Source: a virus (lineage: Duplodnaviria; Caudoviricetes). Taken from it: a stretch of DNA of 42,971 nt. Positions 5,436 to 36,409 of the stretch are shown one piece after another. The DNA lies in IMG/VR virus record IMGVR_UViG_3300025862_000008, positions 1-42,971 of that record; one strand, 5' to 3'. A program made the position numbers and the translations under genes. Below the pieces are notes generated by a model. That model was given only the letters and a program-made list of their open reading frames with translations, had not been told where the DNA came from and did not search any database. Position 1 is the stretch's first letter. Each line of letters begins with the position of its first letter.

Positions 5436-5460
5436 GTAACTTCTCGCCCTTGAATGGGAC
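5436..5460 (+). repeat. motif B variant (GTAACTTCTCGCCCTTGAATGGGAC)
   Basis: 3' 16 nt identical to consensus; lies inside a predicted RNA structure. Confidence 0.75.
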
Positions 5461-5542
5461 GGACGGACGGCCATCTCGCGTGCGCGTTCCACTCCGTGGC
5501 TGAGCTGGGTACGACTTTTGCAATGGCATGAAGCTTCCGGCC

Positions 5543-5551
5543 TGCTACACT
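5543..5551 (+). promoter_or_regulatory. sigma70-type extended -10 (TGcTACACT), leaderless
   Basis: TGn-TAnnnT, then 6 nt to ATG 5558. Confidence 0.55.
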
Positions 5552-5557
5552 GTTGAT

Positions 5558-5926
5558 ATGCCCGAAACGCAACGTGAAGTGGCCCCTAGGAGTACCCCAC
5601 TAGAAGCCGTGAAGCTAAAGATCGAGGGCTTGATAGCGTCCAGACTGGGGATCTTGCACGGCGAAGCGTCAGACCTGGCCGCTGATATGGAGGCGTTGAT
5701 CGGGCGCCTACGTAGCAGGGGGCATGAGGCCAAGGTAGACGACCTCAAGGCGGGGCGCTGGTACCGCACCGCGTCGGACCTCCGTCTCCTACAGGAGCTT
5801 TACACGTTCGTTTGTCAGGTCGGCGGTATGGATGAGTCGCCGATCCAGATGGAGATCGTGGATGACGAGAGCGCTCCGAATGAGATCCAGGATGAGGTCA
5901 CGGAGAGCCACCGATTCAAGAGATGA
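5558..5926 (+). CDS. hypothetical protein
   Basis: MPETQREVAPR...; helical, acidic tail. Confidence 0.6.
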   Translation: MPETQREVAPRSTPLEAVKLKIEGLIASRLGILHGEASDLAADMEALIGRLRSRGHEAKVDDLKAGRWYRTASDLRLLQELYTFVCQVGGMDESPIQMEIVDDESAPNEIQDEVTESHRFKR

Positions 5927-5929
5927 CAC

Positions 5930-5957
5930 TCCCCGGGCACCGCCCGAGGCTCTCTGC
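5930..5957. repeat. palindromic element, copy 2 (T CCCCGGGC ACC GCCCGAGG CTCTCTGC); may also terminate the convergent genes
   Basis: Shares a 16-bp core with 1950-1965; outer flank is the reverse complement of 1942-1949. Confidence 0.7.
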
Positions 5958-5971
5958 CGATGAGGGGTAGC

Positions 5972-6310
5972 TTAGACGCCTAGACGGCGGGTGTAAGCGG
6001 GGTCGACGAGGGCGACCTGCGTCTCGATGCAGAGCGTGGCCGAGCCATTATAGGCACTGACGTCGATCGGGTTATTGGCCTGCGACGAGAACCCGTTCTT
6101 GCCTACCACCGGGTCGGCGTTCCCCACCACGACCGTGGTCACGGTCGGACAACGGAGCAGTTTGACGTGAACCGACGACGCCGCGCTGTTCAGGGTCAGC
6201 CAGGCGGTCGTGCCAGGAAACAGGGAGCTGGTGTCAGCTACCGTGAGCACGCCCTCGTTGGTGGCCGCGCTGACGGCCATAGAGGACTTGAAGATCGGAA
6301 TGCCTGCCAT
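5972..6310 (-). CDS. small beta-rich protein, probably virion-associated
   Basis: SD GAGGA; motif L upstream; Ala/Thr/Val-rich. Confidence 0.6.
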   Translation of the reverse strand: MAGIPIFKSSMAVSAATNEGVLTVADTSSLFPGTTAWLTLNSAASSVHVKLLRCPTVTTVVVGNADPVVGKNGFSSQANNPIDVSAYNGSATLCIETQVALVDPAYTRRLGV

Positions 6311-6312
6311 AA

Positions 6313-6855
6313 CTATTCCTCGATGATGGAGTTGACGTCGCGGTCCGAAGGTGGGTCGACAGAGATATGATTGTCGCTGGCCGGGAAGTTGAGAAAGGCG
6401 AACTCACCGAAGGCTGCAAAGGCAGCCTTATCGTAGGCTTTCGCGGCCTCGATCGGATCGTCGAAGAGTCCGAGGTGTCGCTTCTTGCCGGCGATCCCGA
6501 TCTGAGCCACCCACTTGCCGCGGGCCTTGTTCCAACTAACGCCCTTGAATCCGCTGGTGTTATCGACCCGAATGTCTTGGTTGGCGTTGTTCCGGCCGTT
6601 CGGATCCGGCCTCAGGTTGCTTTCGAGATTGTTCAAGCCATCCCGGTCGATATGATCGGGAGGGCCGACGATGCCCATGCGTTCGGCGATGACCCGATGG
6701 AGGGCTACAGTCGTTCTTGTGCCATCAGGCTTGCGGACGCTGCGATTGGCATAGAAGGTCTTTCGATCCCAGCGTGCGTGCCAATTGAATGCCGCCAAAT
6801 CGGCGTGTTTGTCATCGATGAAGGTTACTTGGCCCTGAGTGAGGCAGATGTCCAC
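6313..6855 (-). CDS. HNH-AP2 endonuclease
   Basis: DHIDRDGLNNLESNLR (HNH), NTSGFKGVSW...HLGLF...AAKAYDKAA...GEFAFLNF (AP2). Confidence 0.93.
   Translation of the reverse strand: MDICLTQGQVTFIDDKHADLAAFNWHARWDRKTFYANRSVRKPDGTRTTVALHRVIAERMGIVGPPDHIDRDGLNNLESNLRPDPNGRNNANQDIRVDNTSGFKGVSWNKARGKWVAQIGIAGKKRHLGLFDDPIEAAKAYDKAAFAAFGEFAFLNFPASDNHISVDPPSDRDVNSIIEE
6367..6373 (-). promoter_or_regulatory. motif L (CAATCAT), putative late promoter
   Basis: Inside the 3' end of HNH-AP2, upstream of gene 5972-6310. Confidence 0.55.
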
Positions 6856-6861
6856 CTCTCT

Positions 6862-6873
6862 CTATAGCGAACG
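6862..6873 (-). promoter_or_regulatory. motif A
   Basis: Exact copy; 6 nt to GTG 6855. Confidence 0.8.
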
Positions 6874-6877
6874 CCCC

Positions 6878-7408
6878 TTAGATCCAGGACCAGATGCGGT
6901 GCCAGGTGCGCGCGATCCACCCGGAGGCAGCGTCCGCGTCTTCCTTGACCTGAGCCTCCAATTCCTTGGCGGCGGCCACGGCAGCGGCCTGGGTGGCCCG
7001 GGCGGCCATGGCAGCGGTGGAGTCGACAACTGCGACAACTGCGGGGCTCTTCAGTTTCTCGACGAGGCCTTCCAACTCCTTGACGGCGGCAGTCTTTTCA
7101 GCCTCGTCCTTCAGGGCCGTGACCTTCGCCTCAACGTCGCTGACGGCGGCCCTGGCATCCGCAATCGCCTTGTCGGCGATGACTTTCGCGTCGGCGGCGA
7201 TCTTCTCGGCCTCCGCCTTGGCGTCGGCGTCTAGCTTATCGCAGGCGGTGCAAGCGAACTTGCAGCCCTTGGCGGCAATCTTCTCGGCCTCGGTCACGAC
7301 GGCCTTGGCGTCGGTAACGATGACGGTTTCGACCTTCTTGGCCTCGGTCACGACGGCGGTCTCTGCCGCTTTGATGGCCCCTTCGACAGACTCGATGATG
7401 TTGCTCAT
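6878..7408 (-). CDS. Ala/Lys/Glu-rich coiled-coil protein with Trp-rich amphipathic tail
   Basis: SD AGGAG at 7413-7417, start MSNIIESVEG; ends SGWIARTWHRIWSWI. Confidence 0.7.
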   Translation of the reverse strand: MSNIIESVEGAIKAAETAVVTEAKKVETVIVTDAKAVVTEAEKIAAKGCKFACTACDKLDADAKAEAEKIAADAKVIADKAIADARAAVSDVEAKVTALKDEAEKTAAVKELEGLVEKLKSPAVVAVVDSTAAMAARATQAAAVAAAKELEAQVKEDADAASGWIARTWHRIWSWI

Positions 7409-7419
7409 TTGACTCCTAT

Positions 7420-7447
7420 GTCCCATTCAAGGGCGTGAAGCTGTTAC
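7420..7447 (-). repeat. motif B (GTAACAGCTTCACGCCCTTGAATGGGAC)
   Basis: Consensus copy; begins 8 nt after motif A and ends just before the SD. Confidence 0.85.
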
Positions 7448-7455
7448 AGATCTAC

Positions 7456-7467
7456 CTATAGCGAACG
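7456..7467 (-). promoter_or_regulatory. motif A
   Basis: Exact copy; followed by motif B instead of ATG. Confidence 0.8.
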
Positions 7468-7471
7468 CCTA

Positions 7472-7930
7472 CTAGCTAACCCGAATGTAGCCAGCGATCT
7501 CGGGGTTCTGGGGATCGTACGAATGCTCAAACACCCCGGTTCCATTCCGGCTAGTCCCGTCGGGCGAAGTATTGCCAGCGATCGTGGTGTTGGGACCGGT
7601 GACGATCGCCACGTGTCCGAGACCTCCTCCATGATCAAAAATCACCAGGTCGCCGGGCTGGGGGTCGGTCGTCTTGAGGTCGGCGTTGAGGGACAGCAGG
7701 TGCAGGGCCGACGCGCTCTTATTGAAGCTGACGGAAACGCCCAGGGCCACGCGGGCATTGTGGACCATGGAACTGGCGAAGGCTGCGCAGTAGCTGGCCG
7801 GATAGTCAATACCGACGAATGCAAGCCAGTCGACGATGGGGCCGCCCCAGTTGCTGTTGGAGCCCGGCGGTTGCTCGACTACGTTGAGGAACTTGCGGGC
7901 TTCGATGATAATCTGGTCCTGAAGTGTCAT
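7472..7930 (-). CDS. CHAP-domain peptidoglycan hydrolase (endolysin candidate)
   Basis: YCAAFAS (catalytic Cys), PQPGDLVIFD, GHVAIV (His), TIAGNT. Confidence 0.88.
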   Translation of the reverse strand: MTLQDQIIIEARKFLNVVEQPPGSNSNWGGPIVDWLAFVGIDYPASYCAAFASSMVHNARVALGVSVSFNKSASALHLLSLNADLKTTDPQPGDLVIFDHGGGLGHVAIVTGPNTTIAGNTSPDGTSRNGTGVFEHSYDPQNPEIAGYIRVS

Positions 7931-7936
7931 ACCCCA

Positions 7937-7943
7937 ATGATTG
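7937..7943 (-). promoter_or_regulatory. motif L
   Basis: 6 nt to ATG 7930. Confidence 0.7.
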
Positions 7944-7953
7944 CGAGACCCGC

Positions 7954-8325
7954 TTAGAAGACGCCTTCTTCTCTCCAGTTCGTGCCGTCGTAGTAGAGAA
8001 TAAGGAGGCTGTTACCGTTAGTAGTCGGGCCCTTGCTCCCGCTAGCAGTCGCCAGCAAGATGGAAGCGGTGCCGGCCGGCGGACTAGAGGCGTTGTTGGT
8101 AATCGTGATGCCGATATTGAGGCTCAAGTAAACCTTGGACCCGATCGCCCATGGACTGACGGTAATGAACTTGAGATTAGACCCAGACGCAACTATGACT
8201 CCAACCCAATTGCGAGTCGCCGTGATGACGCCGCTAGATTGGAGAGCCACTGGCGAACCAGGAGTATACCCCATGTTCTCGATGAGCCGATCTGCCTGTC
8301 CCTTTTCGCGTAGGCGTTGCAACAC
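7954..8325 (-). CDS. paralogue of the C-terminal module of the 625-aa fibre-like protein
   Basis: FITVSPWAIGS...NASSPPAGTASILL...NSLLILYYDGTNW aligns with the end of 8799-10676; probably joined to 8193-8480 by a frameshift. Confidence 0.75.
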   Translation of the reverse strand: MLQRLREKGQADRLIENMGYTPGSPVALQSSGVITATRNWVGVIVASGSNLKFITVSPWAIGSKVYLSLNIGITITNNASSPPAGTASILLATASGSKGPTTNGNSLLILYYDGTNWREEGVF

Positions 8326-8480: not shown

Positions 8481-8486
8481 GTCCCA

Positions 8487-8493
8487 ATGATTG
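8487..8493 (-). promoter_or_regulatory. motif L
   Basis: 6 nt to ATG 8480. Confidence 0.7.
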
Positions 8494-8514
8494 CGGCTTC
8501 GAACCTCGACGGAA

Positions 8515-8773: not shown

Positions 8774-8779
8774 GACCAC

Positions 8780-8791: not shown

Positions 8792-8798
8792 GGAGCTA

Positions 8799-10676: not shown

Positions 10677-10686
10677 TGTAGCCTGT

Positions 10687-24427: not shown

Positions 24428-25210
24428 TTAGGCTGTTCTCATTTCCATATAAGATCGTTGGGTTACGCTGTGTTCGTAGATGGCGGCGATGTGGGTCAAG
24501 AACGTCTCAACGCCCATCGTGCGCTTCATATAGTTACAGGTGGAGCAGCACGGAACGACGTTGCCTTCGACATACCCAACTGAGTTATCGACACGATCGA
24601 TACCGTTGTAGATCCACGGGACCTTCTTCGGAGAACTGATCTGCTTTGGTGCACCGTTACAGTAATGGCAGTTTCGTTTTGTCAGCTCTGCGACGGTATC
24701 TTCGGACAAAGACCAGGCAAGGTCGCGATTTGCCGCACATGTTTTGTATTGGGAGACAACCAGGGCGAACCCCGTTCCCCGCGTGCCAGTTCTTTCCCTT
24801 TCCTTCGCTGCATGTTCTTTGAGAAAAGTCACGACCGAGCAGCCGCACGACTTGGAACCTCCTGCCAGTAGACCTTGTGACGACACAACCTTCTCGACCC
24901 CGCAGTCACATCTACAGAGCCACCTGGCTCCAGGGTGCTTACCTTTTCCTGCACGTGCGACAACCAGCCACTTGCAGAACCTCAGTCCCAGAAGATCCTT
25001 CAAGGTCCTTGTCTCTCGGAGACATCCGCACGACTTACACCTCCCTGAGCGGAGTTCTGCTGCCAATTTTCCAACCTTGACGCCCCCACAGGTGCATCTG
25101 CAGTCCACGACCGTCCTGCCATCCGCTCTCCGATAGGCGGCAGTCACTGTCAGTTGGCCAAAGACGGTCCCCACATCGACATCGGGGGCGCATACATGCG
25201 GTCGGCTCAT
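24428..25210 (-). CDS. HNH endonuclease
   Basis: Two FGxLxV...CxCxCG...SCGC repeats, CHYC, GIDRVDNSVGYVEGNVVPCCSTCNYMK; AT-richer than flanks. Confidence 0.92.
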   Translation of the reverse strand: MSRPHVCAPDVDVGTVFGQLTVTAAYRRADGRTVVDCRCTCGGVKVGKLAAELRSGRCKSCGCLRETRTLKDLLGLRFCKWLVVARAGKGKHPGARWLCRCDCGVEKVVSSQGLLAGGSKSCGCSVVTFLKEHAAKERERTGTRGTGFALVVSQYKTCAANRDLAWSLSEDTVAELTKRNCHYCNGAPKQISSPKKVPWIYNGIDRVDNSVGYVEGNVVPCCSTCNYMKRTMGVETFLTHIAAIYEHSVTQRSYMEMRTA

Positions 25211-27741: not shown

Positions 27742-27747
27742 GCTGGG

Positions 27748-27754
27748 ATGATTG
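27748..27754 (-). promoter_or_regulatory. motif L
   Basis: 6 nt to GTG 27741. Confidence 0.7.
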
Positions 27755-27859
27755 GCGTTGACCCAGATGGCTGCGGCGCGCTCATAGGGGAAACTGAGAT
27801 ACAGCAGTGGCCGATCGGTTTACAACGCCGACCGGCCACTGGAACTTTAGGCTACTTCT

Positions 27860-27890
27860 ATTAAAGCCGGCCCACCAAAGATGGACCGGC
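27860..27890 (-). terminator. possible intrinsic terminator
   Basis: Minus-strand GCCGGUCCAUC-UUU-GGUGGGCCGGC followed by UUUAAU. Confidence 0.5.
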
Positions 27891-27955
27891 CAGGCGCAGT
27901 TCCCCAATTCGAGGGTGCCCTTCGGCCTAGGCCGACGCGCTTGGGACTTATGGTA

Positions 27956-27983
27956 GGCCCATTCAAGGGAGTGAAGCGGTTAC
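27956..27983 (-). repeat. motif B (GTAACCGCTTCACTCCCTTGAATGGGCC)
   Basis: 25/28 match; its TAA is the stop of the upstream gene. Confidence 0.8.
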
Positions 27984-28399
27984 GACTGGTGCGTGAGCAA
28001 AACCATGAACTTGTCGGCGCTCAGGTCTCCCGAACCCGTGAGTTGCGCGATGTGGCCGGCCACAGACACGGTTCCCTCGAAGTGGGTCGTGTCGGGGGCG
28101 CCCGTCGTCATGTTGATGACGGCAACAACGGTATCGCCGACTACGGCGCCCGCAACGGCGACCGAGGCAGGAGACGTTGCGCTGCCGACGAAGGCGCTCG
28201 GAAGCAAGGAAGCGGCGTTGAGCACCGGCAACCCAGCCTTGGTGATGCCGCCAGTGAAGCTGACGGGGGCCTGGAAGCTCCAGGATCCGTTAACGTCGCT
28301 GATCAGCGCGGTTTGGATCGCCCGGCCGCCGAAGGTGCGGGCCGAGAATCGAAATTTGGTGGGGAAGCCTGGGGTGGTGAGAATTACTGAACCGGCCAT
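27980..28399 (-). CDS. small virion (decoration-like) protein
   Basis: Strong SD AAGGAG; SVAVAGAVVGDTVVAV pattern; motif L upstream. Confidence 0.65.
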   Translation of the reverse strand: MAGSVILTTPGFPTKFRFSARTFGGRAIQTALISDVNGSWSFQAPVSFTGGITKAGLPVLNAASLLPSAFVGSATSPASVAVAGAVVGDTVVAVINMTTGAPDTTHFEGTVSVAGHIAQLTGSGDLSADKFMVLLTHQS

Positions 28400-28449
28400 T
28401 GTGTGTCTCCTTGACGGGGTTGGGGCGGGCCCGAGGTGGGCTCAAGGAG

Positions 28450-28456
28450 ATGATTG
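28450..28456 (-). promoter_or_regulatory. motif L
   Basis: Intergenic, about 50 nt before the SD-led gene at 28399. Confidence 0.6.
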
Positions 28457-28485
28457 CTAGCGCTACTGATGAGGTGATATTTACC

Positions 28486-28497
28486 CTATAGCGAACG
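28486..28497 (-). promoter_or_regulatory. motif A (no adjacent start codon)
   Basis: Exact copy 2 nt after the integrase stop. Confidence 0.75.
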
Positions 28498-28499
28498 CC

Positions 28500-29726
28500 C
28501 TAGTTGGCGGGCCGCAACTCCTCCGCTGCCACAGCCGGCGTCATAGTCGGAACCTCGCTCCGGATCCGACCACGGTCAGCGTCCGTGAATCGACCAGGTA
28601 CCAAATGCGCGTATTTTTCCGACACCAGAACGCTGGAATGACCCATGATTTCCTTCAATTTCTCCAGCGTTCCCCCGCCGAGGACCCACTGCGAAGCGAA
28701 GGTATGTCGCCCGGCCCTGTAGAATATCATCGGCTCGATCCTCAACTTGGCCAGGGTCTCCCGGAGGAGTCCACCGATAAGGTGCTCTCCCAAGAACCTT
28801 CTCCTGGGCCCCGACGTCGCGCCTCCGTTCATCCCCAAAATAGCTGGGCACACCAGGCCCATGGCGCCCGTAATCGTCTCATGTTTCTTGAGCAAGGGGT
28901 AGAGGGCGTCCAGGATGGGGACGACCCGACCTTCACGATCCTTTACCGGGGCCTTGCCATCCGCCGTGAGCCGGGACGCGATCTTGCCCTTGCGCCGCTG
29001 GGCCTGCTCTCTCACGACTATGGTTCGACGCTCCAGAGAGACATTTGACCAGTCCAGGGCTCGAATTTCAGATGTCCGGAGTCCCGCCAGAGCGCCAATT
29101 GCATACGCCAGGGCTACGGACGGATGCTGTATGAAGAGGGCGTCGTAGATGCGAAAGATGTCGCTCGGGTCCCGAATGAAGGGCACATCCCTGGGGTCGT
29201 GGTCGGATTTCATGTACTCGCGCCGGGTCTTCTTGGATAGCATCTTGGTTGGGTTCATCTTCGCGTGGCCGTCCTCGACGAGGTCGCTGTAGAAGGACGA
29301 CAGCAAGGCCATGCAGAGCTTCACAGTGGCTTTGCCTAGGCCCTTGGTGCGGAGGGCGGCCATTGAGGTTTTGAGCACGGAGACTTCGACCTCGTTTGGC
29401 GTCAGATCTCCGATGAGAGGCTTCAGGTGGTTGTTCCAGCGGCTAGCGTCATCGTAATGAGATTCGTGGGCGGTGCGGGCCGCGAGCCAGGTCACGGCTA
29501 GCTGCGACAGGGTCTCGACGTCAGTTCTGTGGCTCTCGCCGAGTCCGTATAGGCCGTCCTGGACCCGCTTGGTCGCCAGGGCGAGTAGTCGTTGGGCGGT
29601 GTCGAGGTCGGGGAGGGACTTGGTAACGCGCTTCCCGTCTACATTGTAGAACTGAATAATCGTACGATTGCCCACAGTCCTGATCGAACCTGCCCCGTGA
29701 GGTCTTCGTTTCTTTTTTCTTGCCAT
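28500..29726 (-). CDS. int: tyrosine recombinase / phage integrase
   Basis: Arm-binding start RRPHGAGSI; GLRTSEIRALDW, RHTFAS, IMGHSS, EKYAH. Confidence 0.95.
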   Translation of the reverse strand: MARKKKRRPHGAGSIRTVGNRTIIQFYNVDGKRVTKSLPDLDTAQRLLALATKRVQDGLYGLGESHRTDVETLSQLAVTWLAARTAHESHYDDASRWNNHLKPLIGDLTPNEVEVSVLKTSMAALRTKGLGKATVKLCMALLSSFYSDLVEDGHAKMNPTKMLSKKTRREYMKSDHDPRDVPFIRDPSDIFRIYDALFIQHPSVALAYAIGALAGLRTSEIRALDWSNVSLERRTIVVREQAQRRKGKIASRLTADGKAPVKDREGRVVPILDALYPLLKKHETITGAMGLVCPAILGMNGGATSGPRRRFLGEHLIGGLLRETLAKLRIEPMIFYRAGRHTFASQWVLGGGTLEKLKEIMGHSSVLVSEKYAHLVPGRFTDADRGRIRSEVPTMTPAVAAEELRPAN

Positions 29727-29735
29727 GACGTAGGA

Positions 29736-29747
29736 CTATAGCGAACC
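29736..29747 (-). promoter_or_regulatory. motif A variant (GGTTCGCTATAG) before the integrase
   Basis: 11/12 match; 9 nt to ATG 29726. Confidence 0.7.
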
Positions 29748-29796
29748 AGCCGCAATTGAGCAACTGATTTTTGGCCTAGATCAAATGGAAGGAGAC

Positions 29797-29808
29797 CGTT
29801 CGCTATAG
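29797..29808 (+). promoter_or_regulatory. motif A
   Basis: Exact copy; 7 nt to ATG 29816. Confidence 0.8.
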
Positions 29809-29815
29809 GCTGTTC

Positions 29816-30661
29816 ATGAGTCTCATCGTTGCTGTGATGTGCGTGCTGGCTTGGGAGACCGGGTTGGGCCTCGGGGCCGGCGGTGCCATCCACCTGCTCC
29901 TCGTGGGTGGCGTCGTCCTTCTTTTGTTCTGGATCCTCAATGCCCCGCCCAAAAATAAGGTGAAGATCCAGTCCGAGGCCGACTCCGACTCCCTGGAGAA
30001 GGCGCAGCAGCAGATCCGGGACCTGCAGGAGGCCCTCCGGTTCTGCGTGGACTGCGGCGACACGACCCGCGAACAACTGGAGCTGGCGGTCGCGCGAGCC
30101 GAGATGTTCAAGCGCCACAAAGAAGAAATCGTCGGTCGCGTAGAGGGGATCTTACACATGGCCCGCTGGATCCAGGACGACCGGGACGCGGCCGAGGCTG
30201 AGGTCATCCGTCTCAATGAGATGGTCGAGCGCCTGCGAGCGGTGTGGGCCAAGACCGGTAAGACGGCGGCTCTGCGACTCCAGGAAATAGAGCATTTTAC
30301 GGTCCAGATGGCCGGCATCAGCACCGCCGTCCTCGGTGGCACGAAGTACCCGGCGGTGCAAGGCCAGTACGGGTGGTCGGCGCCCTACCAGGACGTGCTC
30401 GACCTGCGGGCCAAGTACGACAGGCTCCGAACACTCATCAACACCGCAACGTCCCCTCACTGCGACCAAGACGTTCTCCATGCCCCCTCGCTCTGTGAGG
30501 TTTGCGACAAATTCGCCAAGCTGCAAGCGGACCGCTTGGAACGAAAGATCAACTTCACCGGAGGCACCAGGGAGGGCTTCGCACCGTGCCCATCCGATGA
30601 GCGCCGAGGGCGTGGAGTGGCCGAGAAGTGGCACGGCAATCGAGCCACGAGCGGCAAATGA
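29816..30661 (+). CDS. membrane-anchored coiled-coil protein with Cys/His C-terminal domain
   Basis: Two N-terminal hydrophobic helices; PHCDQDVLHAPSLCEVCD. Confidence 0.7.
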   Translation: MSLIVAVMCVLAWETGLGLGAGGAIHLLLVGGVVLLLFWILNAPPKNKVKIQSEADSDSLEKAQQQIRDLQEALRFCVDCGDTTREQLELAVARAEMFKRHKEEIVGRVEGILHMARWIQDDRDAAEAEVIRLNEMVERLRAVWAKTGKTAALRLQEIEHFTVQMAGISTAVLGGTKYPAVQGQYGWSAPYQDVLDLRAKYDRLRTLINTATSPHCDQDVLHAPSLCEVCDKFAKLQADRLERKINFTGGTREGFAPCPSDERRGRGVAEKWHGNRATSGK

Positions 30662-31005
30662 TCAAAGAGGCGGCCCGCATGAATGCGCTGGCCATCGCCA
30701 CCGTGATGGAGTCGGTACTCTCGATCCCGGCAGCCCTTGAAGCCATGGCCGGAGAGATTGCCGAGCTGCGTCGTCAGATCTCGGTCCTGCAGGCGGTCCA
30801 GCCGCTGGCGATCGTCACTGTTCCAGAGGCCGCTGAACGCCTAGGTGTAACGCAGAGAACGGTGCGACGGATGCTCAAGACGGGGCGCCTGAAGTCCGTC
30901 CGCATCGGGAACCGGGTCCGAGTGGACCTGAGCACGATCCAATCAGCCCTTTTGATGACGGTCGACAGTGTTTTTGGTGTTGACGCCAAAACTGAGCCCG
31001 CGTAG
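30658..31005 (+). CDS. excisionase-family helix-turn-helix protein
   Basis: VTVPEAAERLGVTQRTVRRMLKTGRLKSVRIGNRVRV; ATGA overlap. Confidence 0.88.
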   Translation: MIKEAARMNALAIATVMESVLSIPAALEAMAGEIAELRRQISVLQAVQPLAIVTVPEAAERLGVTQRTVRRMLKTGRLKSVRIGNRVRVDLSTIQSALLMTVDSVFGVDAKTEPA

Positions 31006-31008
31006 TAT
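30980..31008 (+). promoter_or_regulatory. sigma70-type promoter, leaderless
   Basis: TTGACG-N17-TAGTAT, then 7 nt to ATG 31016; an inverted repeat (TTTTGGTGT/ACGCCAAAA) overlaps the -35. Confidence 0.7.
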
Positions 31009-31015
31009 CAAAACT

Positions 31016-31189
31016 ATGAATTTCTACGTAACCTGGATGACCACAAGCAAGATCCCGCTTCAGGAAAGGATCGGGCCCTTCCTCATTCGCGAGATGGCCG
31101 TGCGCGAGGTGGACTTCGTGCTAACGGACCCCCGGATCCGGGTGACCGACATCGACATCGAGACCATAGAGGAGAGCATTCATGGATAA
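31016..31189 (+). CDS. small hypothetical protein
   Basis: MNFYVTWMTTSKIPLQERIGPF... Confidence 0.6.
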   Translation: MNFYVTWMTTSKIPLQERIGPFLIREMAVREVDFVLTDPRIRVTDIDIETIEESIHG

Positions 31190-31216
31190 AAACAGCTTCA
31201 CGCCCTTGAATGGGAC
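31189..31216 (+). repeat. motif B (AAAACAGCTTCACGCCCTTGAATGGGAC)
   Basis: 26/28 match, directly at a stop codon. Confidence 0.85.
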
Positions 31217-31295
31217 GGATGGGAACCGCGCACAGCCGAATCCCGTGTTCGGCCATGGGCGCGAATCAAAATCGACGCTGCCTTAAACAGATCCG

Positions 31296-31727
31296 ATGCG
31301 ACTCCAACCCAACAGCTATACCTGCGGTCCGACGGCACTGTCGAACTGCCTGTACGCGCTCACGGGCAAGCGCTATTCCGTCGACGGGATCGCGAAGCAT
31401 GCGGGGACAACCCCTAAGGAAGGCACGTCCCAGTATGGGCTACGGCAGGCGGTTGAGCGTCTAGGGTTTGTCCACAGCGAGCTGACGGCAGGCTTCGGCC
31501 AGGCATTCCAGCACCTCCAGGACTGGCTTGCCGATGGAGGCGTCGCGCTCATCTCCACCGAAGCTGCGGACCACTGGGAGTCGGTGATCGCAAAGGTCGG
31601 CCCAAGGCTCCTGATCTTTGACTCGTGGCCGAAAGGTGGGGGGTTGCGGTCCTTGTCCAAAACGCAGATGAAGATCCACTGGGCGGCAGGAGGGGACGGT
31701 CGATACGCCATACTCATAAAGCGCTGA
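31296..31727 (+). CDS. C39-like cysteine peptidase
   Basis: QPNSYTCGPTAL (Q...C), GTS, DHW (His), IFDS (Asp). Confidence 0.8.
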   Translation: MRLQPNSYTCGPTALSNCLYALTGKRYSVDGIAKHAGTTPKEGTSQYGLRQAVERLGFVHSELTAGFGQAFQHLQDWLADGGVALISTEAADHWESVIAKVGPRLLIFDSWPKGGGLRSLSKTQMKIHWAAGGDGRYAILIKR

Positions 31728-31750
31728 CCACGCAGTCTGCGGCCCGGGAC

Positions 31751-31762
31751 CGTTCGCTATAG
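31751..31762 (+). promoter_or_regulatory. motif A
   Basis: Exact copy; 8 nt to ATG 31771. Confidence 0.8.
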
Positions 31763-31770
31763 ACAGGTAG

Positions 31771-31878
31771 ATGCACGACCTCCTCAGCCTCTGGGCGTGC
31801 AACATATTCCTGGTCATCCCCGTAATTGTGGCCTGGGAATTCGTCAAATGGCTGTGGGCTGGGATCGGCAAATGGTGA
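31771..31878 (+). CDS. 35-aa membrane peptide (not in ORF track)
   Basis: MHDLLSLWACNIFLVIPVIVAWEFVKWLWAGIGKW. Confidence 0.6.
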   Translation: MHDLLSLWACNIFLVIPVIVAWEFVKWLWAGIGKW

Positions 31879-31891
31879 GGGAGGAGAAAGA

Positions 31892-32407
31892 GTGAAACGC
31901 TCAATCGAGTTGTGGCTGCGCGAAGCCGTAAGGGGATTCGGCGGTAGACTGGTCAACAGCATGCCGAGGGTGGGGCCGAACGGATCGGCCTCGATCTCGT
32001 TAGCCCCATTCGCTTCCCTTGAACTGGCGGTCAATTACGAGAAGAAAATCATATACTTCCATGACAAAGCTACGTGGCCAAACGTGCTCCACGAAATCGC
32101 CCACGTGTTCGCTTCGCGCCAAGCCCCCGATGAGTCTGAGGAATTCTCATTCCTTTATTGGGAATGGGCGCTGGCCCAGACGGTCCCGAACGGGGTAGAG
32201 GAATGGGTAGAGGCCAACCGTGAGTACGCGCTATATACGGGGGACGAGATCGGAATGGTCTCCCGGGAAGTGTTGCTAAGCGAATTGTCCAAGGCCAAGA
32301 CCAAGGGCGAGACGATCGGCAATATCGTGGGGGGACAACCGGTTTCAGTACGGTACGGACATGGGCGTGGGCAAGTGTTCCCGTCGTTCTCTGCGGCACT
32401 CAGTTAG
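31892..32407 (+). CDS. HExxH zinc-metallopeptidase-like protein
   Basis: SD GGAGG, GTG start; VLHEIAHVF followed by an acidic EE. Confidence 0.6.
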   Translation: MKRSIELWLREAVRGFGGRLVNSMPRVGPNGSASISLAPFASLELAVNYEKKIIYFHDKATWPNVLHEIAHVFASRQAPDESEEFSFLYWEWALAQTVPNGVEEWVEANREYALYTGDEIGMVSREVLLSELSKAKTKGETIGNIVGGQPVSVRYGHGRGQVFPSFSAALS

Positions 32408-32411
32408 TGGG

Positions 32412-32423
32412 CGTCCGCTATAG
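32412..32423 (+). promoter_or_regulatory. motif A variant (CGTCCGCTATAG)
   Basis: 11/12 match plus GTAGATC spacer and GTG 32431; the next motif A starts only 56 nt later. Confidence 0.65.
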
Positions 32424-32467
32424 GTAGATCGTGTGCCTGCTCAAGAGCTTTGTACTTGAGACAGACT

Positions 32468-32479
32468 CGTTCGCTATAG
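32468..32479 (+). promoter_or_regulatory. motif A
   Basis: Exact copy; 6 nt to GTG 32486. Confidence 0.8.
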
Positions 32480-32485
32480 ACAGGT

Positions 32486-32860
32486 GTGGAAGCAGGCGCC
32501 CTTCTGTTCGATACTGAGACAGTCATCGCCCGAGTCCGCGCCGGTATCAAGCGGATGCAGCTACCGGGAATCTGCCACTCCGTGAAGTTCGCGGCTTCCA
32601 TGCGGCTCCGTTTGTTCGCAGCCAAAGGAGTTACGTGCGTGGACTGCGGGATCCGGGGTGCGGTATTCGCGTTGGAATTCAAAACGCTGCCGACGCCGCA
32701 CCTCAATCTGTACACGAAGAACGGGATCTTGATGACGATGGACCACATCCGTCCACGTTCCAAAGGGGGTCCGCATCAGCTCGGCAACCTCCAGGTCATG
32801 TGTTCGCCCTGCAATGCCAGCAAGGGCGACGCCTGGAATCCGGCCAAGCTCGCTGCGTAG
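32486..32860 (+). CDS. HNH endonuclease
   Basis: CVDCG...MTMDHIRPRSKGG...NLQVMCSPCNASKG. Confidence 0.92.
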   Translation: MEAGALLFDTETVIARVRAGIKRMQLPGICHSVKFAASMRLRLFAAKGVTCVDCGIRGAVFALEFKTLPTPHLNLYTKNGILMTMDHIRPRSKGGPHQLGNLQVMCSPCNASKGDAWNPAKLAA

Positions 32861-32861
32861 G

Positions 32862-32873
32862 CGTTCGCTATAG
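32862..32873 (+). promoter_or_regulatory. motif A
   Basis: Exact copy 1 nt after a stop; 7 nt to ATG 32881. Confidence 0.8.
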
Positions 32874-32880
32874 GCAGATC

Positions 32881-33048
32881 ATGGGCAATCTCATCCGGAT
32901 TAAAAAGGACGACCCCGCCTACGACCGAGCCTTCAAGCACGGAGCGGCCTTTGCGTTCCTCTTGTACGCGGTCATGTCATTGGCGTGGCACGATGCCATC
33001 AACGCCGCTACCTGCTTCGGTGCCGCCATCGCCATGGCGATCGTCTAA
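32881..33048 (+). CDS. 55-aa membrane protein
   Basis: MGNLIRIKKDD...AFAFLLYAVMSLAW...FGAAIAMAIV; bounded by two motif A copies. Confidence 0.65.
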   Translation: MGNLIRIKKDDPAYDRAFKHGAAFAFLLYAVMSLAWHDAINAATCFGAAIAMAIV

Positions 33049-33052
33049 TCCT

Positions 33053-33064
33053 CGTTCGCTATAG
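33053..33064 (+). promoter_or_regulatory. motif A
   Basis: Exact copy; 7 nt to ATG 33072. Confidence 0.8.
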
Positions 33065-33071
33065 GTTGATC

Positions 33072-33524
33072 ATGAGACGCCCCGAGAACTGCGTCGACTC
33101 CGCCAACGACCGTCATGACTGCGGACGGAGCTGTTACGTAGAGATCATCAGCCGTGGGCCGCCCGACCGCTCCCTAGGCGAAATCTTGAGGGATCCGCCC
33201 AAGCTAAGCCTCAAAACTCCCCACCACAAAAAAGAAGAGACCATGACCCAGGTTCAATACGAAACCGAAATCGAGCGCCTGGAGATAGCGATAAAGCTGC
33301 TCGAAGCCGAGAGGCGCGTTCTCACGAACCTCGCCTTTGATATCCATAAGCTCTGCCCGCGCAGTGAGCCCGATAAGCGAACAGCACACGACTGGACTGT
33401 GATCCGCGCTGACTCTCTCGTTGTCTTCGGGGGCGACGACGTCCGCTCCGCAGATTTCGAGTGCATCGGGTGCGGGGCCACCATGAGCATCTGCGATGCG
33501 CAGTACAAGGTTGGCGGTGGATAG
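33072..33524 (+). CDS. hypothetical Cys-containing protein (possible internal start at 33243)
   Basis: Start at motif A spacing; FECIGCG. Confidence 0.55.
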   Translation: MRRPENCVDSANDRHDCGRSCYVEIISRGPPDRSLGEILRDPPKLSLKTPHHKKEETMTQVQYETEIERLEIAIKLLEAERRVLTNLAFDIHKLCPRSEPDKRTAHDWTVIRADSLVVFGGDDVRSADFECIGCGATMSICDAQYKVGGG

Positions 33525-33855
33525 CAGCTTCTTCGGGCTCGACCTGCAGGTGGGCGATCCCCGGCTGAACGGGACAGTTATCACCGGCGGCGGCGCGCTC
33601 ACGCCCGAGATCCTCGACGAGGTATTCCAGCGGATTCTCAACGCGCCTCCACCGATCCCCTGCGGCTGCAAAGGCAACCCACACCTCGTGCGCCCATGGC
33701 CGATCGGCGAGATCACCTACTGCATCCAGTGCGGGTACCTCTGCGTGCAGGAGGGGGCTGGCTACAGGGACCTGAACGAGCAGGAAAAGAAGCTGATGGG
33801 AGACGCGTTCAAGTCGCTAATGGACAAGAGCACTCGTCGCAAACGGAAGCGCTGA
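33517..33855 (+). CDS. zinc-ribbon hypothetical protein
   Basis: CGC...YCIQCG; stop abuts motif A. Confidence 0.6.
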   Translation: MDSSFFGLDLQVGDPRLNGTVITGGGALTPEILDEVFQRILNAPPPIPCGCKGNPHLVRPWPIGEITYCIQCGYLCVQEGAGYRDLNEQEKKLMGDAFKSLMDKSTRRKRKR

Positions 33856-33867
33856 CGTTCGCTATAG
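33856..33867 (+). promoter_or_regulatory. motif A
   Basis: Exact copy; followed by motif B instead of ATG. Confidence 0.8.
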
Positions 33868-33875
33868 ACAGATCA

Positions 33876-33955
33876 GTAACAGCTTCATGCCCTTGAATAG
33901 GATGTAGAAAAGGATTTTCTTGCTCATGCAACAGCTTCACGCCCTTGGATGGGAC
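33876..33955 (+). repeat. tandem motif B pair (33876-33903 and 33928-33955) with a 24-nt spacer
   Basis: GTAACAGCTTCATGCCCTTGAATAGGAT and GCAACAGCTTCACGCCCTTGGATGGGAC; the second is followed immediately by ATG. Confidence 0.85.
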
Positions 33956-34243
33956 ATGGTGAACATTTCTTGCTGCGACAGAACGTGTGGGGTGGTCTTT
34001 GGGATGCCGACTCACATCTACGAGCAGGCCAAGGAAAAGGGCAAGGACCGCTCCTTCTACTGCCCGAACGGGCACGTGCAGTGGTTCGCCGAATCCGAAC
34101 AGGACCGACTGCGGAAGCAGGTAGAGAGCGCGGAAGCGGGGTTGAATCGCTGGCGCGAGAACTACGACAGCGAGCGCAAGGGCCGCATCTACTGGCAAGG
34201 GCAAGCTCACCGCAAGCCGAAAACCAAGACCAATGGCAAGTAA
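33956..34243 (+). CDS. zinc-binding coiled-coil hypothetical protein
   Basis: CCDRTCGVVF...FYCPNGH; alternative start at 33926. Confidence 0.7.
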   Translation: MVNISCCDRTCGVVFGMPTHIYEQAKEKGKDRSFYCPNGHVQWFAESEQDRLRKQVESAEAGLNRWRENYDSERKGRIYWQGQAHRKPKTKTNGK

Positions 34244-34709
34244 TACCGAGCAGGAATTCGACGCCGTCGGCCGCGGCTACTGGAATTGCCCGGGCATGGA
34301 CACTCAAGGCAGCTCGAACGACGCCGATCGGCACCTCCACGAGGAGCGCCACCCGTCCACCGAAGTCGCCGCGAACCTGATCTCGTCCCTGTGCAAGGAC
34401 GGGCTCCATCGGCCCGTTCTCGACTTCGATTTCCCGGCCCGTTACGTGCCGTCGAGCACGCCCGGCCACGGACACCTTTACATCGACCGGCAGATTTGCT
34501 GGGACTCCTACGAGAAGCTGCTGCTGGCCATGGAGGAGTGCTGCTTGCTGGAGCCGGGGTACGTAACCGCTGCCATCGAGCGCAAGGCAACCTTCGTGCG
34601 ACCCGAATGGATCAGAAAGCCGGGTCCTCCGCTGCCGGCGTCTCCGGCGAGCCCCGACTACGATCTGGTGGATCTCTTGGAAGAGGCTGGCGCATATGAA
34701 AACTCGTGA
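34233..34709 (+). CDS. hypothetical protein with primase-polymerase-like motifs
   Basis: HRPVLDFD (DxD) and SSTPGHGHLYI (SxxGxH-like). Confidence 0.5.
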   Translation: MASNTEQEFDAVGRGYWNCPGMDTQGSSNDADRHLHEERHPSTEVAANLISSLCKDGLHRPVLDFDFPARYVPSSTPGHGHLYIDRQICWDSYEKLLLAMEECCLLEPGYVTAAIERKATFVRPEWIRKPGPPLPASPASPDYDLVDLLEEAGAYENS

Positions 34710-34966
34710 GGCATGCACACGCCTGAAGGTTGCCGCAGCGGAAGGAGAACAGGTACCCAGGCTTCGACTCCCTTTTGCGAATGGAACTGGACGACCTGGC
34801 AGAGGACCGAGACTGCGTCGATAACTATCGCATCGCCGACGTCAGCAAGAGGAAGGATATGCGTCGGTACCGGAAGCAGCGGGACAGCGGCTGCTGCGGC
34901 TCCGTCGACAAAGAGGTCTCGATCATGGGGCGGAAATTCATGATCGGCATCAACTTCGGGCACTAG
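34696..34966 (+). CDS. hypothetical protein, probable frameshift near 34728
   Basis: MKTREACTRLK joins LPQRKENRYPG...GCCGSVD...INFGH if one G is removed. Confidence 0.5.
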
Positions 34967-34968
34967 GG

Positions 34969-34980
34969 CGTTCGCTATAG
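34969..34980 (+). promoter_or_regulatory. motif A
   Basis: Exact copy; 7 nt to ATG 34988. Confidence 0.8.
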
Positions 34981-34987
34981 GCTGAGC

Positions 34988-35164
34988 ATGGGCGACAAAA
35001 AACTACCAATGGTTTGGTGTTCGCCGCAGTACCTGCGTGATGTGATGGCGGCGAAGACGTCCTCCGGGCGGCAATTTCTGCTGGCATGGCAGGAGGCCTC
35101 AGCGCGGGCCATTTGGCGAGCATCCATATTCGCGGGCGCACCGCCAACGAAGGGGAATCCATGA
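34988..35164 (+). CDS. 58-aa hypothetical protein (not in ORF track)
   Basis: MGDKKLPMVWCSPQYLRD...; ATGA overlap with the next gene. Confidence 0.6.
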   Translation: MGDKKLPMVWCSPQYLRDVMAAKTSSGRQFLLAWQEASARAIWRASIFAGAPPTKGNP

Positions 35165-35607
35165 CCAATGAACGTGAACGGGCCGGATTGATCCGCGCCG
35201 TGGAGCTGTTGGGGGCGCGCATCGACGAGCTTTGGAGCGATGTCGACCGGCCCGGGAAGAACCCGCGCTATTTCGACTGGCACGAGGAAGCCAACGCATG
35301 CCGTAACATCCTCCTCGCCGCTCTCGCTGAACTGGATATCGGCACACCCGTAAAAGTGCGTACCGACGGTTTCCCGTTGCTCTGCATGAACGGGTGCGGG
35401 GAGCCAAACGCGGAGGGCGCGGGTAACTTTTTCTGTCCCCGGTGTTTCGTTAAGGAGCCACGGAGTCAATGGCGAGCCGCTCAGAAGACATGGGCGGTGG
35501 AGCGGGGACTGATGGATCGCAAGGTCTGCAAGTATTGCAGTTGGCAGGAGCCGTTGACCAAGCGCTGCGTGAAATGTGGGCGGGCACCGGGCACAACGGA
35601 GACCTAA
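35161..35607 (+). CDS. double zinc-ribbon hypothetical protein
   Basis: CMNGC, CPRC, CKYC, CVKC. Confidence 0.65.
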   Translation: MTNERERAGLIRAVELLGARIDELWSDVDRPGKNPRYFDWHEEANACRNILLAALAELDIGTPVKVRTDGFPLLCMNGCGEPNAEGAGNFFCPRCFVKEPRSQWRAAQKTWAVERGLMDRKVCKYCSWQEPLTKRCVKCGRAPGTTET

Positions 35608-35614
35608 AGTAGGG

Positions 35615-35626
35615 CGTTCGCTATAG
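35615..35626 (+). promoter_or_regulatory. motif A
   Basis: Exact copy; 7 nt to ATG 35634. Confidence 0.8.
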
Positions 35627-35633
35627 ACGGGGT

Positions 35634-36106
35634 ATGTGTGATGAATGCGCTCCCTGGGCCTACTGTAAGCACCTCTTCAGATCGCGTCCTCTGACCGACG
35701 AGCACCCGACCCCGTGGTCAGTCAAGACGCACGAGAACCGCTTCAGCGGGACTGAGTACATCGTTGTCGACGCCAATGGCAAGTACGTGGCCGAAGCGAC
35801 CGAGCAGTACATCGCCCGACTGATCGCCCGCGGCCAGTTCAACGTCATCCCCCAGCCAGAGGAACCCATCTACAAGCGCGTCAGGCGACTGGAGACTGAG
35901 CTGGCGGAAGCCAAGGCTGCGATGAAGGCCGAGAACGAAAAGACCTTCCGGGAAGCCGATCAGAGGCTCAAGAAGTGTGGCGAAAAGGAGTCGAACACGT
36001 CTTCGTCCTCCGAGAGTGGGAGGAAAACATACCTTCTAATGGGGCGATGGAGAAGATCGGCAAGTACGTCTGTCATTGCGGCGCCCGGATGAGGATCGAC
36101 GCGTAG
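35634..36106 (+). CDS. hypothetical protein, probable frameshift at A4 run 35983-35986
   Basis: HPTPWSV...IVVDANG; the alternative frame gives GVEHVFVLREW...VCHCGARMRIDA*. Confidence 0.6.
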
Positions 36107-36111
36107 GTAGG

Positions 36112-36130
36112 TCATGCCCGTGAAAGGGAC
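36112..36130 (+). repeat. degenerate motif B core (TCATGCCCGTGAAAGGGAC)
   Basis: 16/19 match to the 3' part; just after a stop. Confidence 0.5.
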
Positions 36131-36197
36131 CAGCGACTCATCGATGGCGCCCGAGACCTACACCTTGTAAAGGCCCCTCGAATTACCAGGATAAGAC

Positions 36198-36209
36198 CGT
36201 TCGCTATAG
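36198..36209 (+). promoter_or_regulatory. motif A
   Basis: Exact copy; 7 nt to ATG 36217. Confidence 0.8.
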
Positions 36210-36216
36210 GCTGATC

Positions 36217-36375
36217 ATGGAAACGAACCCCCGCCTCGCCGACGAAGACCTCACCGGATGCGACTTGGCCCGAAATGTGGGCGGAGGCGTACCCGTCGCA
36301 ATCGATGAGGAAGAGCCGACGCTTGCCATCCCCGCCGAGAGCAATAGACAGGTGGTCGACGGGCGGCTCCGATGA
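36217..36375 (+). CDS. 52-aa hypothetical protein (not in ORF track)
   Basis: METNPRLADEDLTGCDLARNV... Confidence 0.55.
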   Translation: METNPRLADEDLTGCDLARNVGGGVPVAIDEEEPTLAIPAESNRQVVDGRLR

Positions 36376-36381
36376 GTGACG

Positions 36382-36409
36382 AGCCCAGCCTCACGCCCTT
36401 GAGTGGGAC
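36382..36409 (+). repeat. motif B variant (AGCCCAGCCTCACGCCCTTGAGTGGGAC)
   Basis: 22/28 match; 6 nt after a stop. Confidence 0.65.

Follow-up and report, generated by a model that had tools for sequence, protein, structure and literature searches.

Comparison with related phages suggests that motif B, a dispersed repeat in the 42,971-nt stretch of phage DNA analysed here (the window), is made up of recent insertions that come and go among close relatives. Copies are polymorphic as insertions, some carry target duplications, and rearrangement breakpoints fall at one edge of the motif; taken together, these features mark B as a spreading sequence. Dispersed, oriented repeats of phages are usually taken as fixed operators or RNA signals.

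The repeat unit and its genomic setting

The window holds part of the genome of a phage akin to Myxococcus phage Mx1; the analysis covered about 93 kb of this genome of approximately 170 kb. The clade is known only from metagenomes, Mx1 being the one cultured relative found. Across the records there are 21 copies of B: eight in the window, eight on two further contigs that are probably from the same phage, four in the relative G004 and one in a short contig. None was found in a complete relative or in Mx1, the latter having neither B nor motif A (a promoter-like box), and the core of B is absent from the relative G005. Searches of Rfam, GTDB and a set of papers gave no match to B. The relevant features of the window are:

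5436..5460, plus strand: 25-nt form of B with its core at 5446-5460, 5' region of ORF 5528-5926
7420..7447, minus strand: B copy, exact consensus (core 7420-7434)
7456..7467, minus strand: motif A, promoter-like box, 8 nt upstream of B
27956..27983, minus strand: polymorphic B copy (core 27956-27970) that overlaps the ORF 27980-28399 stop codon
28500..29726, minus strand: tyrosine integrase (phrog_1 match)
31189..31216, plus strand: B copy, likeness from 31191 (core 31202-31216), three codons into an ORF
33856..33867, plus strand: motif A, promoter-like box, 8 nt upstream of B
33876..33903, plus strand: B copy with the most changed core (core 33889-33903)
33928..33955, plus strand: B copy (core 33941-33955), in frame, codons 2-10 of ORF 33926-34243
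36112..36130, plus strand: partial B copy (core 36116-36130), loop variant GTGAAA, also present at L017:2082
36382..36409, plus strand: B copy (core 36395-36409) with likeness from about 36386, read in frame within the opening codons of ORF 36372-36812

The dispersed repeat reported in a preliminary description of the window is real. Its core, GCCCTTGAATGGGAC, is found at all eight listed places with at most two mismatches (shuffle mean 0.0), and five copies fit the 28-mer at three mismatches or fewer, while none of 100 shuffles gave any match. The length of 28 nt given at that time applies to some copies, but the conserved unit is a 15-nt core (GCCC-N6-GGGAC), and overall size ranges from 16 to 28 nt. 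Relative to the 28-mer, the copy at 5436 has a 3-nt deletion, and those at 36382 and 36112 have only the last 19–24 nt in common with it. Taken alone, copy 36112 scores 15.2 bits against the weight matrix, inside the shuffle range (maximum 20.3); its 16-nt variant recurs exactly in the record L017. The 3' edge of B is sharp, with the consensus at background from the first base behind the core, while the 5' edge is ragged and fades across the 12 nt upstream of the core. No 5'-only copies were detected above chance. As had been described, the CCC/GGG arms are conserved: just one of 17 core changes falls within these six positions (P ~0.002–0.005), and in two orthologous pairs of copies all four changes are in the loop (P=0.018). 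The arms thus look constrained at their sites, which suits a functional site as well as it does a mobility signal. Variant cores and upstream parts are common to unrelated loci, and about 40 nt are common to both antisense copies of G004.

The claim that B is always oriented with transcription holds for the window (8/8 copies) and for all 17 copies outside G004, but two of the four G004 copies are antisense, inside coding sequence. Overall, 19 of 21 copies run in the same sense as the local gene, and each of the remaining two lies behind a promoter-like motif in its own direction. The strand of B flips with the genes within 2 kb (5446 plus, 7434 minus), and the genes hosting the copies have no function in common. 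Four copies are indeed at or just after stop codons, overlapping them or within 10 nt (-27983, +31189, +36112, +36382), yet a general placement at or near gene boundaries is too simple, as the copies at 31189, 33928 and 36382 are in frame within the first codons of the next ORF. The copy at 33928..33955 has an ATG on either side, and the phrog_33336 match of the protein from ORF 33926-34243 begins at residue 15. The G004 orthologue of the ORF holding copy 31189 continues as a 92-aa gene.

Twelve of the 21 copies follow one or other of two promoter-like motifs within 35 nt, compared to 7.8% of tolerated positions, and nine have no such motif adjoining. The proposed coupling to motif A is seen for eight copies, and the observation that two begin exactly 8 nt past it (-7447 and +33876) was correct, but four others follow a second motif, CAATCAT or a one-letter variant, and the rest follow neither. 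Across five records, 96 of 123 exact A boxes have an ATG or GTG 6–9 nt behind them.

Differences between close relatives

Relative to other records, B copies appear as insertions of 11–43 nt at otherwise orthologous sites. In L017 the net insertions are 27, 30, 34 and 43 nt compared to empty orthologous sites; G004 has a 39-nt insertion relative to the window, and L013 one of 11 nt relative to G005, which carries a B-like remnant or precursor at that site. Copy 27956 of the window faces a 32-nt gap in the alignment to G004. The copy at 7420..7447 separates motif A from the ribosome-binding site of ORF 6878-7408, and both A and B are missing from the G004 and G005 orthologues. Neither genome has a core at the place orthologous to copy 5436, where the alignment is loose. 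With both flanks aligned, B is missing in 13 of 15 comparisons, many of which are against the B-free G005, and motif A in 4 of 31. Parsimony, and parsimony only, argues that these copies were gained rather than lost. The two larger B-positive phages have only two places in common, and G004 has no copy in the 18-kb small-gene region where the window has five.

Two of the 21 copies are flanked by exact direct repeats, of 8 and 9 nt, that end 10 nt before the core (P=0.0013); in the other 19, any duplication is shorter than 8 nt. Sequence upstream of the core is carried along from the donor, in one case with the whole promoter box. In G001, the first ~12 codons of an HNH gene have been replaced, with the breakpoint at the 3' end of B, and rearrangement breakpoints at this end join to unrelated sequence. 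Run X3, with contigs of a near strain, provided further variants, each in a single low-depth contig where such differences may be errors. One contig (depth 4.5) lacks 22 nt from 27956, and another (depth 3.5) has a 305-nt deletion that starts at the 3' end of copy 33876..33903 (joint 33902-34208, with 148 nt on the shorter side). X3 also contained B in contexts that are new relative to the 93 kb of the window phage: a tandem pair, an inverted pair, and a copy behind a tRNA-like end.

Explanations for the repeat

The favoured explanation, held with roughly even confidence, is that B, rather than being a fixed control signal, is a non-autonomous, one-ended miniature mobile element, the core of which marks the cut-and-join point of a putative enzyme. 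Such an enzyme would recognise the 15-nt core and cut or join DNA right behind the final GGGAC. At the core, a strand break directed to the site, or the entry of a template, would make the 3' junction, and the 5' junction would be resolved by microhomology, giving duplications, clean insertions or adjacent deletions. Targets would be DNA opened by transcription, which would account for the strand and promoter bias, and selection would remove copies that break genes. Any effect on expression would be secondary. If correct, B is an unusually small mobile unit, and provides a testable route by which phages gain internal promoters and lose genes.

No mobilising enzyme for B was found, nor a reverse transcriptase in any of the four records scanned (three of them fragments), and the only Y1 transposase in this set is in G005, which has no B. 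The only candidate of matching distribution is a RepB-type primase-polymerase, part of a replication module common to the two larger B-positive genomes. The primase match in G004 (E=3e-6) is below the Pfam cut-off, and there is none in G005. The L017 primase gene matches G004 alone, not G005 or Mx1, and resembles the AEP domain of the S-2L PrimPol (E=8e-5). With two positive and two negative genomes, the link between primase and B is weak. A bolder version would make B a gene-less, self-propagating DNA element of ~15–26 nt, fixed at one end, that the phage's own RepB-type primase-polymerase copies into DNA opened by transcription, carrying promoters to new genes and deleting or truncating neighbours. 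Phage genomes would then be remodelled in a new way; we think this version improbable. As single-stranded DNA, the hairpin of B barely forms (about -1 kcal/mol in seven of eight copies).

The best-surviving rival, although unlikely, is that B is an asymmetric phage repressor site (operator or stoperator) that stops transcription from starting or proceeding at promoters and gene junctions, with new sites arising via ordinary short-patch copying and being kept by selection. On a regulatory reading, the pattern would show a genome being seeded with new binding sites. An integrase is encoded by the phage, the conserved blocks of B are about one helical turn apart with a variable middle between them, and tandem pairs are spaced 50–54 bp apart. 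Placement and orientation, including that of the two copies behind a motif in their own direction, support the resemblance to stoperators suggested earlier, since the L5-type sites described are many and asymmetric, lie between genes and are linked to direction (PMC9283540). The turnover of sites and the sharp 3' junction are, however, left without explanation, and the scarcity of shared places and the copy-free 18 kb of G004 also argue against it. No repressor was found among genes common to B-positive and missing from B-negative records (incomplete genomes, with ~93 of ~170 kb covered). A de novo search of the integrase-bearing G005 gave no substitute motif, but was insensitive, because it missed B in G004 too.

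Less probable again is a short RNA hairpin that a phage or host protein binds or cuts, for nut-like antitermination, for processing or to control translation; its spread would reflect the usefulness of extra copies. The sense orientation and the CCC/GGG arms described earlier stand: in predicted transcripts B occupies +3 to +17, it is found immediately 5' of ribosome-binding sites, 97.9% of cells show the stem paired, and a CCC/GGG-type hairpin is the lowest-energy RNA fold in six of eight window copies. The fold and covariation do not bear it out, as folding is no better than that of shuffles (RNA z -1.1 to +0.1, eight copies), compensatory changes are seen in 0/3 pairs, and Rfam gave no match. 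While boxB has a 5-bp stem and a GNRA-like pentaloop, B has a 3-bp stem and a 6-nt loop with U first in 18/21 copies, and the likeness is superficial. In the incomplete genome of the window phage, a small Arg-rich ORF (34730-34966), a candidate N-like partner, is shared with G004 and missing in G005; it has no family, and no homologue beyond itself.

Next in order, and doubtful, is that B mimics or derives from a CRISPR repeat (a solitary repeat unit (SRU), an RNA anti-CRISPR or a mini-array), its tandem pairs representing repeat-spacer-repeat. The 28-nt length with GT...AC ends, the four tandem pairs with 22–26 nt between copies (window, G001, L017, X3), and a reverse complement loosely like two type I-C repeat entries are suggestive, as are the promoter-proximal solitary copies, since SRUs are described as solitary promoter-proximal repeats in phage genomes (PMC10651486). 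Against this, a 21-nt degenerate core had no match in 185,579 GTDB genomes, and a looser paired pattern gave eight GTDB loci, none of them a CRISPR array. There was no array in a metagenome scan, no Rfam CRISPR family and no entry in the SRU tables; in GTDB, Rfam and the SRU tables, no known host repeat reached 90% identity. Sequences between the paired copies of the window, G001 and L017 have no convincing target, with matches at chance level. That of the window holds a ribosome-binding site and start codon, and that of L017 is ordinary intergenic sequence, present in G004 and G005. No cas gene was seen among the proteins scanned.

A dif site has two conserved, inverted 11-bp arms around a 6-bp overlap. 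The dif-like 11-6-11 site for the phage tyrosine integrase, also proposed earlier, agrees with the geometry of the consensus and with some rearrangement breakpoints being at B, but is largely refuted and very improbable: the proposed left arm shows the weakest conservation, being absent or altered in about half of the copies, and the proposed overlap the strongest, the inner TTCA/TGAA pairing occurs in 75% of cells, a level reached by 52 of 500 shuffles, breakpoints are at the 3' end and join unrelated sequence, and long X1 and X2 contigs over window positions 27500-37500 match without gaps, although such contigs drop rare variants. The integrase was rejected as a specific partner of B, as 75–76% identical genes occur in both G004, which has B, and G005, which does not.

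Comparison with known systems

Like B, REP/REPIN sequences and the PATEs of IS200/IS605 are small, non-coding, hairpin-bearing, dispersed, and presumably moved in trans. IS605 elements occur in the clade (G005), but B shows no likeness to their ends and does not fit a PATE. B is one-ended, with a 3-bp stem and 8–9-bp duplications at 2/21 copies, whereas IS200/IS605 insertion is described as producing no target-site duplication (PMC10055086). The G005 element matches another hairpin of the window (1950, 5931) and none of the B copies.

The operators and stoperators of L5 and cluster A mycobacteriophages are, like B, many asymmetric sites in integrase phages, placed at promoters and gene junctions and oriented with transcription (PMC9283540). 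B differs in that clean insertions with a fixed 3' edge come and go between close strains, in the lack of a repressor among the genes searched, and in a longer, co-inherited upstream tail. Lambda nut/boxB resembles B in its GCCCU start, GGG near the end and sense position downstream of promoters, but B has no conserved boxA-like block and has many, unstable copies. SRUs, Racrs and viral mini-arrays are also short and promoter-proximal, and some are paired (PMC10651486), while B has copies inside coding sequence, no matching host repeat was found, and at least two of the four pairs enclose sequence that is not a spacer.

The PeSLs of T4-type phages are ~100-bp units of a promoter and a strong stem-loop that swap genes by recombination between copies (PMC2839356). 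They resemble B as dispersed repeats that are linked to promoters, lie where gene boundaries vary, and are associated with the gain and loss of genes, but B is 16–28 nt, has a weak stem, is not a promoter, lacks an adjoining promoter-like motif in nine of 21 copies, enters sites that have no resident copy, and its breakpoints join non-homologous sequence. Finally, the ssiA/ssiB sites of RSF1010, served by the RepB' primase, provide a fixed start point 3' of a hairpin, with synthesis running back through the hairpin (PMC8567376). They are hairpin sites, as is B, and a RepB-type primase co-occurs with B. An ssi site is 40 nt with a 21-nt hairpin and occurs once per strand, whereas B is short, makes a weak hairpin as DNA, and is oriented by the genes rather than by a replication strand.

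Distribution and orientation of B

Matches to the 28-nt form of B with up to 3 mismatches occur five times in the window and not once in 100 shuffles. All eight places listed in the preliminary description hold the 15-nt core GCCCTTGAATGGGAC with at most 2 mismatches, and 8/8 run in the same sense as the local genes. Taken alone, the partial copy at 36112 is weak (15.2 bits, vs 20.3 reached in 30 shuffles), but its 16-nt variant recurs in L017, another B-bearing viral contig. At this same tolerance there are 8 cores in the window, 2 in the contig G001, 6 in L017, 4 in the larger relative G004, and none in either the complete relative G005 or the cultured Myxococcus phage Mx1 (shuffle means 0.0–0.5). 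One core on the short phage contig L013 brings the total to 21 copies. Three copies (31189, 33928 and 36382) are in frame with an ORF, within its first codons. A different CCC-N6-GGG-type stem, with another loop, is found at window 5406-5419, some 30 nt upstream of the core at 5446.

The strand of B tracks the genes rather than a genome strand, since the copies at 5446 (plus) and 7434 (minus) are only 2 kb apart. It had been proposed that B always runs with transcription, and this is true of 19 of the 21 copies; two G004 copies are exceptions:

G004 49072 and 39907, antisense: copies of B inside coding sequence, with CAATCAT or CAATCCT 8 nt upstream in their own direction

The proposed coupling to motif A, a promoter-like box, is also partial: two window copies begin 8 nt past A, but only 8/21 lie within 35 nt downstream of it. 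With four more copies at this distance behind a second motif, 12 of the 21 are promoter-proximal, on a background of 1.2% of all strand positions or 7.8% of intergenic and gene-terminal positions. The remaining nine are at or near gene starts and stops.

Core anatomy and insertion sites

Column counts over the 21 copies show invariant CCC and GG around a variable 6-nt middle. The consensus fades over 12 nt upstream, and is gone from the first base after the core. Copies of the 5' half only do not occur above the chance level set by G005 and Mx1. The upstream parts form subfamilies common to unrelated loci, and the two antisense G004 copies have about 40 nt in common, which argues that copies derive from other copies together with donor flank. 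At the left junctions the target often shows a short likeness to B, as judged by eye. Of 17 changes in the core, only 1 affects the six arm positions; in two orthologous pairs all four changes are in the loop, indicating that the arms are constrained.

Alignment of orthologous sites gives clean gaps of 27, 30, 34 and 43 nt at four L017 copies, the last taking in a whole motif A. The window copy at 27956 corresponds to a 32-nt gap, and G004 49072 to an in-frame 39-nt gap against the window. Between L013 and G005 the difference is 11 nt; the G005 site, already similar to the 5' part of B, may represent a precursor or else a remnant. Among comparisons with both flanks aligned, 13/15 lack B, many of the 15 being against G005, which has no B, and the two 'present' rows being one pair seen from both sides; motif A is absent in 4/31, two of these being the A+B insertion. 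The window phage and G004 have only two places with B in common.

Exact direct repeats of 8 and 9 nt, ending 10 nt before the core, flank 2 of the 21 copies (P=0.0013; null rate ~0.0026 per site), while at the other 19 repeats are at most 5 nt and at chance level. The sequencing run X3 represents a near strain. There, 22 nt of the 27956 copy are missing from one contig, and in another, position 33902, where a B copy ends on its 3' side, is directly followed by 34208. Further contigs show B in a new tandem pair, in an inverted pair, and following a tRNA-like end; each variant is represented by a single contig at depth 3.5–6.5. In G001 the junction at the 3' end of the second copy falls at about codon 13 of an HNH gene. 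The insertion behaviour of B is well supported. Inspected by hand, the target sequence ahead of the 3' junction seemed T-rich, a pattern that an automatic alignment did not show consistently.

The phage, its relatives and their promoter-like motifs

The window covers 26% of a large tailed phage and carries baseplate, endolysin, integrase and HNH genes. G001 (30 kb) and L017 (45 kb, 20 kb of it covered) are non-overlapping tiles of G005, and because both are found alongside the window in run X1, at 22–27x depth, the three probably belong to the same phage. Over aligned blocks these contigs share 76–84% identity with G004 (96 kb, 58% complete) and G005 (169 kb, complete). For the structural protein tested, Mx1 is the sole cultured relative among 50,697 phage records (45% identity), which suggests a myxobacterial host. 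The Mx1 genome note mentions no repeats (PMC10720576); that genome has its own dispersed 14-nt motif (L022-L024), at about 13 sites that follow tRNA genes and precede gene starts, as well as a 42-nt tandem palindromic repeat at 102777-102866.

The small-gene region at window 33000-37000 is inverted in G005 (~90000-96000). HNH genes lie at window 6313-6855, 24428-25210, 32486-32860 and 42446-42904, several of them preceded by a motif A of their own. HNH paralogues are numerous in G005, where they occupy other positions, and G001 contains intein-bearing genes. No tRNA genes were found in the window. On the minus strand of G001 (~19048 and 20159), 5' ends that resemble tRNA and tmRNA, judged by eye, stand downstream of A.

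Across the clade, motif A is a promoter-like box whose genes are mostly leaderless: a start codon lies 6–9 nt behind it in 96/123 exact copies. There are 24 sites with at most one mismatch in the window, and A also occurs in G001, L017, G004 and G005, and is absent from Mx1. G004 and G005 encode a 35% identical homologue of a sigma factor annotated in Mx1. The second motif, CAATCAT, has 10 window sites (minus strand, 6373-41190), all on the structural-gene strand and mostly just before gene starts, and is probably a late promoter. It occurs at 38 sites in G005, shortly before structural and other late-type genes. A second dispersed hairpin (window 1942-1969, 5930-5957 and 42298-42319, the last a looser look-alike; G001 ~1300) stands directly upstream of A in three cases. 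It matches one end of the G005 IS605 element (tnpA + tnpB, ~91300-92800), and these hairpins are likely IS-end remnants.

Beyond this group, Rfam gave only three chance hits to B (E up to 5). Of the pattern scans of GTDB, one returned 0 loci and another 8, all of these tandem or coding repeats, and viral-contig scans added no B-bearing records beyond G001. Nine loci (L002, L003, L005, L008, L009, L068-L070 and L072) looked like chance matches in unrelated sequence; L014 is a chance match with 3 mismatches and no motif A. Against cultured phages and plasmids blastn gave only E > 0.3. The B and A strings are in no paper searched, subscription journals and supplements lying outside that scope. 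Overall, B is classed among the miniature, dispersed phage repeats of a mobile or regulatory kind.

Readings of B and comparison with known systems

We give about an even chance to B being a mobile element. An enzyme would act at the 3' end of the core, the other end being closed via microhomology; this is suggested by the fixed right edge, the ragged left edge, the upstream DNA carried along, and occasionally a duplication or a deletion anchored at the right edge. The target may be DNA opened by transcription, which would account for the bias in strand and towards promoters. The mobile and the regulatory reading may hold together.

Placement, orientation and arm conservation agree with a stoperator-like operator, as had been suggested, the first two by comparison with L5-type stoperators (PMC9283540). 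An operator does not account for turnover or the fixed junction, however, and no repressor was found among the genes common to B-positive records and missing from B-negative ones, with genomes incomplete; this reading is unlikely. An RNA hairpin signal, also fitting the orientation, is distinctly improbable. The supposed boxB/nut-like stem does not resemble boxB, and B folds only weakly, short of significance, both as RNA and as DNA. In 97.9% of cells the CCC/GGG stem is paired, without any compensatory change, so that covariation lends no support, and recognition of structure and of sequence are not separable.

Mimicry of a CRISPR repeat fits the length, ends and tandem pairs, but we consider it decidedly improbable. 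No host repeat was found in 185,579 GTDB genomes, a metagenome scan, Rfam or the SRU tables, negatives to be read with the host not identified and arrays often missing from assemblies, and no spacer target was found. A search for Cas12j repeats, which the 3' end of B may resemble, gave no match. A guide-RNA idea was dropped: sequences between paired copies read as antisense gene starts, one being a ribosome-binding site, and no target was found. A 14-nt match of the sequence after copy 5436 to 31094-31107 is about chance level. A myxovirus survey describes a Cas12m phage, with no link to this clade in the portion seen (10.64898/2026.09.14.751636). PMC10691335 discusses arrays that form de novo from TnpB RNA segments; no TnpB was found in B-positive contigs. 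The proposed dif-like site is scarcely credible, failing on arm conservation and on G005, with inner TTCA/TGAA pairing at 75%, a level reached by 52/500 shuffles.

As for an enzyme in the mobile-element reading, no reverse transcriptase was found in four records, and the sole Y1 transposase, with TnpB, is in G005, which has no B; Y1/IS605-type elements make no target duplications (PMC10055086). Few genes are common to B-positive phages and missing from G005, notable among them a replication module with a DUF1376 initiator and RepB-type primase-polymerase. The module (L017:15045-18509; G004:24461-27863; G005:24475-27026) is swapped between relatives, with DUF1376 initiator, DnaB and RepB-type primase in L017 and G004, and a different initiator and DnaB, without RepB-type primase, in G005. 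The correlation of primase and B compares 2 vs 2 genomes, incomplete ones among them. In the protein collection the primase is recorded on contigs of 88 kb and 165 kb. A viral-contig search for further primase carriers returned only G004, and the AlphaFold model of the primase (pLDDT 49.6) is too poor for use.

B fails a defining test each for boxB, dif, PATE, PeSL (PMC2839356), SRU and ssi. It differs from the RSF1010 ssi in not being a stable DNA hairpin. The RepB' of RSF1010 begins at a defined position on the 3' side of a hairpin, from where it copies back across the hairpin (PMC8567376), and this start geometry matches the edges of B.
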